Shown piece by piece: positions 14,329 through 17,444 of a stretch of DNA of 32,000 nucleotides. The translations under genes were made by a program, and so were the position numbers. How positions within the stretch are numbered: position 1 is the first letter of the stretch; each line of letters starts with the position of its first letter. The DNA lies in NCBI RefSeq assembly GCF_040207875.1, contig NZ_CP157942.1, positions 202,001 through 234,000 on the forward strand, written 5' to 3'. Below the pieces are notes generated by a model. That model searched no databases. It saw nothing but the letters and a program-made list of their open reading frames with translations, and was not told the origin of the DNA. This DNA comes from Wolbachia endosymbiont of Armadillidium arcangelii. Its GTDB lineage: Bacteria > Pseudomonadota > Alphaproteobacteria > Rickettsiales > Anaplasmataceae.

Positions 14329-14479
14329 TTACTTTTTCAAAACTGCAAAGAAGTACCTACCTTTGTGAGAACACGTTGCATAAATATAGGGTTGTGAAAA
14401 CAAAGGTGTGAAATTTTTGCAACGAAGCTCAACAAATTAGTTCATACAAAAATTTAGTCTAAATTAGCCAATTAATCAC
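14329..14479 (-). promoter_or_regulatory. Copy A of a shared ~150-bp upstream module (upstream of the small ANK gene cluster)
   Basis: Collinear with 17290-17444. TTGTGAGAAC at 14363 and TTGTGAAAAC at 14392 are 29 bp apart. TGAAATTTTTGCAA follows 17 bp later at 14409. Confidence 0.4.
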
Positions 14480-14531
14480 TTAAAATCCAATATGGAATGT
14501 TCTAAAAAGAAATCTTTCTCTGCCATTTCAT

Positions 14532-17186
14532 TTAAGCCTCTAAATGTCTCTCATTAGTTACAATTGTGGCATCACTGTTTTTAAGTGAATTTGAAGGACT
14601 ATTACAACAATATATGATCGCAGCAGCGACAAGACAACAAGCTCCAACTGCTATTCCCACTGCTAACATTTCTAAGTAAACTGCAATAGCTACACCTAAA
14701 GCAACTCCAGCTATTGCTAGCGTGGAAGCAGCAGCTACAATAGTTTTCTTTTCAATTCGTGGACTTGGCTGTCGATTATTATTTTGAATACCATTTGTTT
14801 GATCTGTTGCTATAACTGAATTTTCTGGTTGTAATCTTTCTGGAACTAACAGTGTTTTGCTTTCCTCTGGAAAAATTGACTCATTAGCATCATAAAATTC
14901 TTCATCTGTGTCGCTCTCACTAATAGTTGCATAACTGTTACTATTATCTTCTGCATCAAAATCACTATTTTCATCAATTTGAGCTTCCGTTTCTCTTGTG
15001 ATATTCTCCTGAAGATTAGATGGCTCTTGTGCAAAGCGTTGCATTACTTCTATCTCTGACAATCCCTCGATAACAAGAGCGTATTCACCTCTACTTGGTA
15101 TACTTCTATTGTAATTCGGTAAAACACCCTTAATATTTTCGCTAAAATATTTACTTATCTCTGCTAAAATCTTTTGTTGTTTAAACGTAACTTTCTCAGG
15201 ATCATTAATATCTATACATTCTATGCGTAACAAGTGATGTTGCAAAACCTCTTGTAACTCTGGATTATCCTTGACATATTGAATTAATCTGTCGGCTAAA
15301 TTTTCTATAAACGGTGTAATGTTCTCTTTTGTAATAACATCTTTTTGTACCTCCAATTTTTGTTCTTTTTCTAAATAGCAATCATATCGTTCCACGATTT
15401 CCGAGCTAATTTCTTCTATACTACTAATAATCTGGGTCCATGTCCCTTGGATGCAGGCACTGCTATTTTCACCATACGTTGTTGCTGCTATATATATTTG
15501 TTTTAGAAGAACGAACTCTTTTTGCTCTCTCCAGACCTTTTCTATATCTAGACCACTGATTTCTTTAAACAACTTATTTATTTTTTTATCATCATCTATA
15601 CCATTTAATAATCCGTGTAGTTCTGTTTTCTTAAATTGTCCTTCATTGAGGATGTCACTATTTCCGAGTTCTTTTCTAATTATAGACAATTTTCCTCTTA
15701 CTAACTCTGAGTTTTGTTCCATAAGAGTAACTAGCAACTCCTTTTTTCCTTTCAGTGGAACGGAAAAATTATCAATAAGTAATTTTATATAACCTATAGA
15801 TTCAGGTATAGTAATTTTTGCATCATCTCCCGTATAATCATATTGCAATTTCTGTGTTGAGTATTCTTGGTCATACTCACCATGGTCGTTCTTTTTTAAG
15901 TACTGCTGCTCTAGTGCTCGCTTAGCTTCATCAATCACATCCTTAATAAATTTTTTATCATTTGGTATAGGATCATTGTCGGATAATGTTCGCTCCATTA
16001 CACTTCTTTTTTCATTATCAGTTAAATTAAGAAGCCTTAGTCTTATCGGATCATTATGATATTGTTCAAGTAATTCAGGTATATTTTCCACGTAAGAAGC
16101 TGCAGCTTGCTTCAATTGTTCTTTGTCAACTTTTACGGATTCAACTAGCTTCTTAGTAAAAAAATTTATCCGTTTAACTATTGGACTTCTATGGACAGAT
16201 TGACTATCTCGTGCAATGCGTTTATCTTCTCTTCTTTGATTCCTTTCTTCTTCAGGGACCATGCCACGTTCAAAGAAAAACTTTTGCATCTCAGGCTCAG
16301 GGGAGTAAGTATAGAAATGAGATAGTGTGTGTCCTTGCTCATCTCTTGAATTAATTAGAAAAGGATATTTATCAGGATCATTCAAAAGAAGCTCTATTCC
16401 CTCTCTGCGATAATTTTGTCGCGCAAGATCAAAAAACAACTTCTTTACGCTGTTTTCATCTAGCTTGCCAACATTACCGTTAGATCTTGCTCTTGCTTTA
16501 GACCATGATGCTTTCAGATATTGATAAAAAACTAGAGAGCTGCCTAGACATGTATAACCAAATTCATCTATGAATTCCCAGTATTCCTCAGATTCAGCCA
16601 AAGCTTTTACTTCTTTTATACCAATGTTGTTACTATTCAAATCAAATTTAATAAATTTTGTAAGATTAACTAAAGCTTTTACTCCTTCAGCACCAATATT
16701 GTTACTCCCCAAATTAAGTTCAGTAAGTTTTGTAAGCTTAGCTAAAGCTTTTACTCCTTCAGCACCAATATTGTTATTCCACAAATTAAGTTTAATAAGG
16801 TTTGTAAGCTTAGCTAAAGCTTTTGCTCCTTCTTCACCAATATTGTTACTCCACAAATTAAGTTCAGTAAGGTTTGTAAGTTTAGCTAAAGCTTTTACTC
16901 CTTCTTCACCAATTTTGTTCAAACTCAAATCAAGAACAGTAAGGTTTGTAAGTTTAGCTAAAGCTTTTACTCCTTCATCACCAATTTTGTTATCACACAA
17001 ATCAAGTTTAGTAAGGTTTGTAAGCTTAGCTAAAGCTTTTACTCCTTCTTCATCAATACTACAATCCCTGAGAGAAAGTTGTGTAATACCTCTGTTCTCT
17101 TGCAAAAAGCTTATCAATTCCTTGATATCTACTCTTTGATAATCCAAACGTAATTTGCCGCCTTGAACATGCTTGTTGAAATTCAT
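14532..17186 (-). CDS. Leucine-rich-repeat protein with a large unknown helical domain, an acidic linker and a C-terminal bilobed hydrophobic anchor (candidate secreted effector)
   Basis: Seven 24-aa LRRs (LTxLxLxxNxIGxEGVKALAKLTN). The hydrophobic domain TIVAAASTLAIAGVALGVAIAVYLEMLAVGIAVGACCLVAAAIIYCC maps to 14604-14744. I moved the start to ATG 17186 (MNFNKHVQGG...), because the upstream 30 codons of the listed ORF are AT-rich junk. Confidence 0.8.
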   Translation of the reverse strand: MNFNKHVQGGKLRLDYQRVDIKELISFLQENRGITQLSLRDCSIDEEGVKALAKLTNLTKLDLCDNKIGDEGVKALAKLTNLTVLDLSLNKIGEEGVKALAKLTNLTELNLWSNNIGEEGAKALAKLTNLIKLNLWNNNIGAEGVKALAKLTKLTELNLGSNNIGAEGVKALVNLTKFIKFDLNSNNIGIKEVKALAESEEYWEFIDEFGYTCLGSSLVFYQYLKASWSKARARSNGNVGKLDENSVKKLFFDLARQNYRREGIELLLNDPDKYPFLINSRDEQGHTLSHFYTYSPEPEMQKFFFERGMVPEEERNQRREDKRIARDSQSVHRSPIVKRINFFTKKLVESVKVDKEQLKQAAASYVENIPELLEQYHNDPIRLRLLNLTDNEKRSVMERTLSDNDPIPNDKKFIKDVIDEAKRALEQQYLKKNDHGEYDQEYSTQKLQYDYTGDDAKITIPESIGYIKLLIDNFSVPLKGKKELLVTLMEQNSELVRGKLSIIRKELGNSDILNEGQFKKTELHGLLNGIDDDKKINKLFKEISGLDIEKVWREQKEFVLLKQIYIAATTYGENSSACIQGTWTQIISSIEEISSEIVERYDCYLEKEQKLEVQKDVITKENITPFIENLADRLIQYVKDNPELQEVLQHHLLRIECIDINDPEKVTFKQQKILAEISKYFSENIKGVLPNYNRSIPSRGEYALVIEGLSEIEVMQRFAQEPSNLQENITRETEAQIDENSDFDAEDNSNSYATISESDTDEEFYDANESIFPEESKTLLVPERLQPENSVIATDQTNGIQNNNRQPSPRIEKKTIVAAASTLAIAGVALGVAIAVYLEMLAVGIAVGACCLVAAAIIYCCNSPSNSLKNSDATIVTNERHLEA
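16584..17087 (-). repeat. 7 x 72-bp coding tandem repeat (the LRR units)
   Basis: The protein-level period is 24 aa. The mirror ORF 16570..17139(+) shows the same periodicity (FVSLAKAFTPS...). Confidence 0.85.
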
Positions 17187-17289
17187 TTTTACCTTACTAA
17201 ATATTATTATTTTAGCAAATATTTTAATACTTTTTAAGTAATATTTATAAAAAATACTGATTTCGTAGTGCCACAAAAAATTTATTTAT

Positions 17290-17444
17290 TTACTTTTTTA
17301 AAAAAGCATAAAAATAGTACGTATATTTGTGAGAACAATTAAAATAAAAGCGGCGTTGTGAAAAGAGAAGCTTGAAATTTTTGCAATCAAATTAAGCAAT
17401 TTGGTTCGTATGTAAATTTAGCAAAAGTAAGCCAATATAGCTAA
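17290..17444 (-). promoter_or_regulatory. Copy B of the shared ~150-bp upstream module (upstream of the LRR gene)
   Basis: TTGTGAGAAC at 17327, TTGTGAAAAG at 17356 (29-bp spacing) and TGAAATTTTTGCAA at 17373. The spacing is identical to copy A. Confidence 0.4.

Follow-up and report, generated by a model that had tools for sequence, protein, structure and literature searches.

A conserved non-coding module upstream of ankyrin, LRR and other host-interaction genes of Wolbachia, a candidate shared regulatory region

In Legionella and Coxiella, the PmrA and CpxR regulons are built on response-regulator boxes located upstream of Dot/Icm effector genes. The Wolbachia DNA described here resembles them in that short direct repeats recur before many unrelated effector genes of an intracellular bacterium. 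In contrast, the PmrA and CpxR boxes are short motifs beside the -35 and -10 elements, with a known regulator and with unrelated surrounding DNA, whereas the Wolbachia module is a stretch of 200-400 bp of homologous DNA, with a box approximately 130 bp upstream of the start and a variable spacing. Phage 'morons' are promoter-gene units that stand by themselves in the accessory regions of prophages. They share with the present case accessory prophage genes that have their own promoters, independent of the phage structural operons, but no homologous promoter-upstream cassette is known to be common to morons, and some of the Wolbachia copies are chromosomal. In Anaplasma, a member of the same bacterial family, the msp2/p44 donor cassettes have conserved flanks that are a recombination substrate beside variable genes. 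Conserved DNA flanking variable genes is found in both cases; however, the Anaplasma cassettes are promoter-less pseudogenes copied into one expression site, whereas the Wolbachia copies precede complete genes with their own predicted promoters. Correia elements and MITEs are likewise dispersed intergenic repeats able to supply promoter function, whereas the Wolbachia module has neither terminal inverted repeats nor target-site duplications and is strictly oriented with the downstream gene. A MITE or a repeat derived from an insertion sequence was rejected on these grounds, the only inverted pair being internal and 8 nt long and all copies being co-oriented.

To our knowledge, almost nothing is known about the control of ankyrin, LRR and incompatibility genes in Wolbachia, an organism that is not genetically manipulable. 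Our literature search returned no earlier description of the motif reported below or of shared upstream regions of Wolbachia ankyrin genes.

Two homologous segments and the family to which they belong

In the window (the whole 32-kb stretch of DNA analysed), segments 14246-14472 and 17209-17436 align collinearly with 68% identity over 231 columns (E 1e-26), a likeness beyond chance. The first-pass annotation had proposed this collinearity, and the homology extends beyond the limits given there. As delimited by the nhmmer profile, the core of module A covers 14279..14492 (E ~1e-56) and that of module B 17242..17456 (E ~1e-54), both on the minus strand. The 60-nt core previously described as free of indels is indeed so, with 45/60 positions identical between the modules, the next-best match within the window being 30/60 (mean 16.5, sd 3.5). 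In the core, TTGTGAGAAC (at 14363 in module A and 17327 in module B) is followed 29 nt downstream by TTGTGAAAA(C/G) (14392 and 17356) and 17 nt beyond it by TGAAATTTTTGCAA (14409 and 17373), positions and spacings that agree exactly with those first noted. The four occurrences of TTGTGARAA in the 32 kb are all within modules A and B, and a profile search found no third copy of the module in the window.

Both modules lie upstream of minus-strand genes, as claimed earlier. The end of module B is separated by 56 nt from the ATG (17186) of an 884-aa LRR gene (14532..17186, minus strand; Pfam LRR_6 and LRR_8) with a TomO-type hydrophobic C-terminus, the homologues of which carry the name 'TomO hydrophobic C-terminal domain-containing protein'. 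The end of module A is separated by 83 nt from the ATG (14196) of a 75-aa ankyrin ORF (13969..14196, minus strand; Pfam Ank families), which is, by comparison with the locus L003 of a related genome, the truncated form of a 165-aa gene. Two further minus-strand ORFs of 196 and 275 aa (12505..13926) together match one 458-aa L003 gene and thus probably represent a broken gene that belongs to the unit of the ankyrin ORF. What had been called a small ANK gene cluster is instead one truncated ankyrin ORF followed by the halves of one gene, and the decay of this unit in the present genome counts against the regulatory role that we propose below. Exact-protein look-ups with three window proteins and the paralogue P0039 matched no record.

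Conserved non-coding 5' modules form a Wolbachia-wide family that includes both segments; its members share a core of ~215 nt, and the long form measures ~300-400 nt. The core of module B is alignable with module A and with the copies of other Wolbachia, and is continued by a 5' extension (17457..17549, minus strand) that is missing from module A, is conserved in 11 copies of the long, B-type form and reads AACCATTTCCAG...GTGAGAAC...TGGTCTACCA on the gene strand; in the window, the match of the extended profile runs over 17252-17549. Module A has a different, A-type 5' flank (14493..14531, minus strand), located directly after the LRR gene stop codon and common to copy 2 of L003 (100% identity from 13079 on) and copy 2 of the locus L034 (conserved at 12646-12740). 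The profile search of Wolbachia and Ca. Mesenet DNA gave 19 copies, and the extended profile gave 28 matches, a figure that includes redundant strains, at ~20 distinct places in ~0.25 Mb of such DNA. Looser sequence patterns produced mostly chance matches, which the nhmmer profile removed. The strict composite pattern (both boxes and TTTTGCAA) was found in none of the viral contigs and, in the genome collection, gave only two chance matches (Oscillibacter and a Clostridia MAG), the window's genome being evidently not among its species representatives. No match was obtained by megablast of 12000-19900 against phage records, or for the module against plasmids.

All copies have the orientation of the next gene and lie 55-390 nt before its start codon. 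Apart from two copies with an insertion sequence after or within them, the next genes encode eukaryote-like or host-manipulating proteins: they are of the LRR/TomO type, several unrelated ankyrin genes, a DUF7831 gene and a cinA-cinB pair (cinA identified by its match to PDB 7ESZ_B, E 6e-295), and one subtype of the module, 80-94% identical, stands in front of at least four unrelated genes. The proposal that copies of one upstream module precede unrelated genes is thereby extended from two genes to a family. We also checked for the behaviour that would speak against this proposal, that of a dispersed repeat without positional bias: the copies are dispersed, yet strictly biased in position and orientation, and therefore do not behave in this way. 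Since the module is constantly upstream of, and co-oriented with, ankyrin, LRR/TomO, DUF7831 and cinA genes, a set of host-interaction genes under one common upstream module is a reasonable hypothesis.

Many copies are in the accessory ('eukaryotic association') region of prophage WO, adjoining cifB and the serine recombinase, and some are chromosomal. The prophage context, with cif, serine recombinase and eukaryote-like genes, was seen in L022 (wMel), L035, L034 and L057, and the chromosomal one in L096 and L097; the window itself contains no phage structural, cif or recombinase genes. The gene order in wMel is cifA-cifB-module-WD0633-recombinase, and in L035 the same slot carries another cargo (cifA-cifB-module-LRR-recombinase). 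In Ca. Mesenet, a different genus, the LRR orthologue is likewise preceded by a copy.

Transcription starts, candidate promoters and conserved boxes

The wMel copy connects the family with published data. Two 'highly conserved' intergenic segments between WD0632 (cifB) and WD0633 were reported by Woolfit et al. 2015 (PMC4349823, Table 3). The first of them, 622,779-622,923, maps onto the wMel module at 622,783-622,996 (L022 9022-9235; wMel coordinates mapped via the gene positions of PMC12558409), and the homology of the wMel segment to the module (72% identity over 213 nt, E 1e-19) identifies the two, at the sequence level, as the same element. In 2015 the segment was described as a small-RNA candidate at a single locus and then set aside; that description did not include its repetition before many other genes, its motifs or its connection with a start site. 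Its place among the candidate conserved small-RNA regions, with reads over it (PMC4349823), argues for a small RNA or structured 5' leader encoded by the module, a reading that we nevertheless regard as highly improbable. The same study detected transcription across the segment only as part of the flanking units (PMC4349823), and Rfam, searched with gathering and E-value thresholds, returned nothing relevant for the module. Folding is weak: the RNAalifold consensus reaches -1.57 kcal/mol with 0 compensatory pairs, the 5' extension -2.5 and -5.5 kcal/mol on the two strands, and the single-sequence z-score is -0.47. No coding signal is present in the module. An integron-type cassette site was dropped, there being no stable conserved hairpin and the module lying 5' of the identified cargo genes.

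In the Cappable-seq data of wMelPop-CLA, a start site for WD0633, pTSS_+_623050, is supported by 8410 cpm (PMC12558409 Table S1). It is located 54 nt beyond the 3' end of the wMel module and ~146 nt downstream of the GTTCTCACAA box, and its promoter and leader also fire at two wAlbB ankyrin loci (PMC12558409). No start site was found within the module in wMelPop-CLA (PMC12558409 Table S1), which also argues against a small RNA, and for none of the start sites in the Cappable-seq tables does the box lie <=50 nt upstream or <=100 nt downstream. These positions bear on the anatomy first suggested, a -35-like TTGCAA followed by two TT(T/C)TCACAA repeats, if the repeats are taken as operators that overlap the -10 and the start. 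In agreement with that anatomy, the LRR-type and A-type copies, both window copies among them, have kept TTGCAA and the two boxes; but no usable -10 follows at 16-18 nt, the hexamer 17 nt on being TTTCAC, without the key A2 and T6. In the wMel-type copies TTGCAA is lost, reading TTGAAATAATTTAAATC, and the strong start lies far downstream. We consider this arrangement very unlikely, and TTGCAA is probably not the -35.

Instead, transcription of the downstream gene would start from a sigma-70-type promoter at or just past the 3' edge of the module. For the LRR gene, a consensus scan predicts TTAAAA, 17 nt, TGcTAAAAT at 17209..17237 on the minus strand, and the matching position reads TTGAAA-16-TAAAAT in L003 and TTGACA-17-TAGAAT in L035 and L034, from which we infer the promoter assignment. 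For the ankyrin unit, TTGGCT, 16 nt, TGcTAACAT at 14246..14273 (minus strand), read in the sequence, may be a promoter, a more tentative candidate whose homologous position in L003 copy 3 is TTGACT-18-TACAGT. Hexamers of the sigma-70 type are present 16-18 nt apart upstream of the gene, with weak matches in the window copies, and the consensus scan of the window region gave 21 promoters against 16.6 expected from shuffles (sd 4.6), which is no enrichment. Among the copies, 7/18 have a promoter-like site with a score >=10 at 74-138 nt after the box, compared with 2.5% of random windows, a control that contains coding DNA and therefore flatters the enrichment. Since box 1 and the candidate -35 are separated by anything from 74 to 138 nt, there is no fixed phasing as in a classical activator or operator; lying ~130-150 nt before the start, mapped or predicted, the box is also far for sigma-70 regulation. 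A promoter built on the box itself (TTGTTC-16-TATTTT) occurs in four copies only and was dropped.

The most conserved 10-mer of the family, box 1, reads GTTCTCACAA on the gene strand (17327..17336 in module B and 14363..14372 in module A, minus strand). Its information content is 1.93 of 2 bits (16 copies), and in 230 kb all of its 17 occurrences (17/17) are inside modules, none being free-standing. It precedes LRR, ankyrin, DUF7831 and cinA genes, as a motif shared by the genes of a regulon would. Box 2, TTTTCACAAC on the gene strand (17355..17364 in module B and 14391..14400 in module A, minus strand), is the second most conserved 10-mer. The idea of two paired boxes therefore stands in so far as they are the two top conserved 10-mers of the family, and fails in the wMel-type copies, where box 2 reads TTTTTATAAC and has lost CAC. 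The TTGCAAAAATTTCA block formerly taken as -35-like (17373..17386 and 14409..14422, minus strand) is conserved in no subfamily other than the LRR-type and the A-type. In the extension of module B, GTGAGAAC on the gene strand (17523..17530, minus strand) repeats 8 nt of box 1 perfectly in inverted orientation, 186 nt to its upstream side, and GTGAGA(A/G) is retained in 11/11 aligned B-type copies, being degenerate in L003 copy 1 only. Likeness of the boxes to a DnaA box (TTATCCACA), a CRP half-site (TGTGA...TCACA) or a CtrA site (TTAA-N7-TTAA) was judged by eye to be at best 5-7 of 9 matches and was dropped in each case; Rickettsiales are not known to have CRP. For the Anaplasmataceae regulator Tr1, no consensus site was found in the literature.

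Recombination between copies

Module A arose by recombination between two copies. From 14560 to 14474 the sequence has 100% identity to L003 copy 2, from there to ~14440 each 40-nt window differs from that copy by 1-3 mismatches, and from 14435 to 14396 the identity is 100% to L003 copy 3, which places the junction at 14386..14456 (minus strand); the DUF7831 gene located between these two L003 copies is missing in the window. This loss, together with the module-gene-module-gene arrays of L003 and L034 and the differing cargo of the post-cifB slot, is in agreement with a module that is above all a conserved 5' flank for the swap, duplication and deletion of effector genes, its promoter activity being secondary. 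We hold this explanation to be unlikely: our analysis revealed neither a conserved 3' flank to match nor a recombinase site or a hairpin-forming inverted repeat, the conservation at the motif level is left unexplained, and any 200-bp repeat recombines, so that the observed events need no selected function.

The same events are compatible with a passive repeat, i.e., duplicated or horizontally transferred promoter-proximal DNA kept alike by recent phage WO transfer and gene conversion, with no dedicated factor and no common regulation, the boxes being its slowest-diverging part through, for example, DNA shape or general nucleoid proteins. The copies recombine and module subtypes switch between cargo genes, much of the family occupies mobile, insertion-sequence-rich prophage regions, and the box-to-promoter spacing is variable. 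In contrast, the 10-12 nt block is near-invariant while the neighbouring columns differ by 20-40%, the inverted GTGAGAA is kept throughout the aligned B-type copies, and a recognisable copy survives outside the genus Wolbachia. We regard a passive repeat as a possible but rather doubtful explanation; part of the conservation could nevertheless come from recent phage-mediated transfer and gene conversion and not from selection.

A proposed common control region and its significance

With moderate confidence, we favour the reading that the module is a shared promoter-upstream regulatory region of host-interaction genes, the copies of which also spread and recombine. The module would be the common upstream control region of the gene behind it, with GTTCTCACAA and, 29 nt upstream, the related TTTTCACAAC as putative sites for a DNA-binding protein, and with the inverted GTGAGAAC, ~190 nt further up in the long copies, as an additional putative site. 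Such a protein would act from ~130-330 bp upstream of the start site. Duplication and recombination would spread the copies, either together with a cargo gene or alone, and the copies may offer patches of homology through which cargo genes are reshuffled or deleted, module A being an example. The absence of conservation of box 2 and of the TTGCAA block in the wMel-type subfamily counts against this regulatory reading.

A more specific proposal, which we put forward tentatively and consider on balance improbable, is that GTTCTCACAA and the upstream inverted GTGAGAAC form the operator of a regulator, possibly a helix-turn-helix protein of prophage WO, that jointly controls mobile host-manipulation genes. 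If true, TomO-type LRR genes, the ankyrin/OTU gene beside cifB, other ankyrin effectors and the cinA-cinB operon would be under joint control, and this would be the first defined Wolbachia effector regulon, carried and reshuffled by phage.

The module accounts for the 'highly conserved intergenic region' of 2015 and for one of the strongest wMel Cappable-seq start sites. With its near-invariant box of 10-12 nt it is a possible DNA pull-down probe, and any Wolbachia genome can be screened with it for host-interaction genes that are candidates for co-regulation. It also marks sites of exchange and loss of effector-type genes, and is in this respect relevant to the diversification of the accessory region of phage WO.

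Homologous modules at two loci of the window

The motifs and spacings described by the first-pass annotation for two collinear segments upstream of minus-strand genes, module A (core 14279..14492) and module B (core 17242..17456), were all exact on re-reading of the sequence. Their 60-nt core aligns without indels at 45/60 identity, the runner-up match to this core within the window being 30/60 (mean 16.5, sd 3.5), and a sensitive BLAST widened the homology to 14246-14472 versus 17209-17436 (231 columns, 68% identity, E 1e-26). The string TTGTGARAA occurs in the window at the four box positions only, and a third module copy was sought there and not found. 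The shared upstream feature of the two loci is real.

In minus-strand order, module B comes first, followed by an LRR/TomO-type gene (14532-17186, minus, 884 aa), module A, an ankyrin ORF of 75 aa (13969-14196, minus) and two further minus-strand ORFs of 196 and 275 aa. The matches of the LRR protein are Wolbachia proteins named 'TomO hydrophobic C-terminal domain-containing protein'. At the corresponding locus of a related genome (CP156070.1, L003), the ankyrin gene encodes 165 aa versus 75 aa in the window, and its neighbour is a single 458-aa ORF versus two ORFs; on this comparison, what had been taken for an ankyrin gene cluster below module A is in fact one truncated ankyrin ORF and then a split gene.

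The window (G+C 35%) holds several other features. Three neighbouring ankyrin ORFs (10053-11241, +; 121, 119 and 130 aa) contain 99-bp repeats and are probably one ankyrin gene in pieces. A perfect 28-nt inverted repeat pair (11261-11288 and 12451-12478) surrounds a degraded transposase remnant (ORFs 12063-12387), whose L003 orthologue is called Transposase_mut; the 28-mers are found in L003 as well. The ORF at 18222-19886 (+) encodes a coiled-coil-like product of 554 aa, with no Pfam family above threshold, and includes about 38 tandem 21-bp units (18295-19092) that encode the heptad repeat C-[DE]-Q-D-K-Q-[KTIV]. Two inverted insertion-sequence copies with a DDE_Tnp_1 transposase (19834-21409 and 25922-27497; 1576 bp, 100% identical) enclose 4.5 kb (21410-25921) that code for a DnaB-type helicase and for four toxins of ParE/RelE type, of which one follows a weak ribbon-helix-helix ORF. 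Wolbachia plasmids from Aedes albopictus (NZ_CP101658.1, NZ_CP101659.1) cover 42% of this interval at 80% identity, and the interval looks like an integrated plasmid-like piece within a composite-transposon-like structure. A short palindromic repeat (TGTCATCCCAGT...ACTGGGATGACA) occurs in both orientations at 4085-4122, 27586-27620 and 30313-30486, one copy being a 54-nt inverted pair; similar sequence is found around wMel start sites (Cappable-seq tables).

A family of co-oriented copies and its conserved boxes

Three module copies stand inside 5.3 kb of L003, before the LRR gene (89% identical to its orthologue in the window), a DUF7831 gene and the ankyrin gene, respectively. A profile built first from five copies (window and L003) and later from 16 was searched over all DNA that had been retrieved, either via protein look-ups or via pattern scans in viral and metagenome contigs. 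The profile matched copies before LRR/TomO-type genes (L034, L035, L005, L026, L117-L119, Ca. Mesenet L116), WD0633-like ankyrin genes (wMel loci L022, L024 and L025; L050, L068), other ankyrin genes (L057, L043, L085, L087, L096, L097) and a cifA/cifB-type pair (L027, L029), the proteins of which match chains B and A of PDB 7ESZ (E 6e-295 and 0), taken to be CinA and CinB. An insertion sequence has landed behind the second copy of L034, and another cuts the module remnant of L115. All copies found run the same way as the next gene, 55-390 nt before its ATG. Since housekeeping genes adjoin some of them (L096, L097, L115), the family extends beyond the prophage. The copy of L116 (5614-5894; Ca. 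Mesenet endosymbiont of Agriotes lineatus, OZ026454.1) is diverged (E 1e-13), with TTTCTCTAAA as box 1 and AAGTAAATA retained. The LRR orthologue that follows it belongs to another genus of Anaplasmataceae, so the family is either old or crossed genera along with the gene. The window modules are members of this family, probably a shared cis-regulatory or promoter module, a kind of element already known; no prior description of this family or its motif was found in the searchable literature.

In the 16-copy alignment, the most conserved 10-mer is GTTCTCACAA (1.93 of 2 bits), which corresponds to box 1, annotated as TTGTGAGAAC; the second box, TTTTCACAAC, ranks next (1.68 bits), followed by AAGTAAATAA and TA(C/T)GAAC. 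The top 10-mer was met 17 times over 230 kb of DNA from Wolbachia and Mesenet, each time within a module (17/17). In copies of the wMel subfamily, the second box reads TTTTTATAAC and the TTGCAA block TTGAAATAATTTAAATC. Long (B-type) copies, module B among them, have an additional 95 to ~200 nt at the 5' end. Within this extension, some 190 nt upstream of box 1, stands its perfect inverted copy GTGAGAAC, which is retained in 11/11 aligned copies and degenerate only in L003 copy 1. A-type copies, including module A, start with the 3' flank of the preceding LRR gene, not with the 5' extension.

Other identities of the module were considered. An RNA element was ruled out by an Rfam search with nothing relevant, and by weak folds (consensus -1.6 kcal/mol, with no compensatory pair; 5' extension -2.5 kcal/mol on one strand and -5.5 kcal/mol on the other; module B z-score -0.47). 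A coding remnant was ruled out from the alignment inspected by eye, in which indels are not multiples of three and a shared reading frame is absent, and a transposon by the lack of terminal inverted repeats in the module and by a constant orientation, reversed in no copy.

Reshuffling and recombination of module copies

The gene order in wMel is cifA, cifB, module, WD0633 (ankyrin) and serine recombinase, and that in L035 is cifA, cifB, an IS200-type gene, module and LRR gene, with the recombinase further on; the module therefore occupies one slot ahead of differing cargo genes. In the identity matrix, one subtype (80-94% identical) stands before WD0633-like genes, cinA and two other ankyrin genes, and the LRR-type subtype also stands before one ankyrin gene (L085). 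Modules and cargo genes have been shuffled relative to each other.

Module A is a mosaic. Its part between the LRR stop codon and 14474 shows 100% identity with L003 copy 2, and the stretch that follows, as far as ~14440, differs from that copy by only 1-3 mismatches in each 40-nt window. The segment 14435-14396 shows 100% identity with L003 copy 3, which is still the nearer copy past 14396. Since the DUF7831 gene lying between two module copies in L003 (13719-14759) is also absent from the window, two module copies have recombined, most simply by deletion of the intervening gene. Module copies also serve as recombination substrates.

Transcription starts and candidate promoters

The wMel module was placed at 622,783-622,996 through the gene coordinates of Suliman et al. 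2025 (PMC12558409, Table S1), where it falls on intergenic segment 622,779-622,923, described as 'highly conserved' and seen to be transcribed only jointly with its neighbours (Woolfit et al. 2015, PMC4349823). The Cappable-seq data (PMC12558409) list pTSS_+_623050 of WD0633, 293 nt before the ATG (8410 cpm), and a weaker start 22 nt before it (850 cpm). The former is preceded by TTGACT-17-TAATAC and lies 54 nt beyond the module 3' end, ~146 nt downstream of box 1. The TTGCAA block had been proposed as a -35 hexamer; this assignment is not borne out, the block being altered in wMel-type copies and the listed start lying so far downstream. The promoter and leader of pTSS_+_623050 are also active in wAlbB, at two ankyrin loci (oTSS 558896 and 1374933), and their sequence is found again behind the modules of L043, L050 and L068. 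In the Cappable-seq table, the box occurs neither in the 50 nt before nor in the 100 nt after any listed start site.

Directly after the wMel-type start site, a stable hairpin (-19.9 kcal/mol, z -3.6) with a U-run resembles an intrinsic terminator. It lies at L022 9289-9345 (wMel 623,050-623,106), recurs in L043, L050, L068 and two wAlbB loci, overlaps the second 'conserved intergenic region' of Woolfit 2015, and is lacking in the window copies. Together with the 8410 versus 850 cpm, it suggests a short leader RNA or attenuator before WD0633-type ankyrin genes.

In a set of 18 non-redundant copies, the top-scoring promoter-like site begins 74-138 nt after the box; 7/18 score at least 10 of 12.5 versus 2.5% of windows drawn at random from these loci, a control that contains coding DNA and so flatters the enrichment. 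For module B, we infer a promoter at 17237-17209 (TTAAAA-17-TGcTAAAAT), the matching position reading TTGAAA-16-TAAAAT in L003 and TTGACA-17-TAGAAT in L035 and L034; the putative promoter of module A (14273-14246, TTGGCT-16-TGcTAACAT) is weaker.

On the best-supported reading, the module would be a regulatory region common to the genes downstream of it, its 3' edge holding a sigma-70 promoter; the copies stand ahead of effector-like genes of Wolbachia and phage WO. The near-invariant box and the related upstream sites are candidates for a protein-binding site, the long and variable box-to-promoter spacing being a weak point of the regulatory reading; recent phage transfer and gene conversion may account for part of the conservation. 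The general idea of a duplicated promoter cassette with possible common regulation stands. The module makes effector and cin regulation testable, and is of moderate to good interest for Wolbachia biology.
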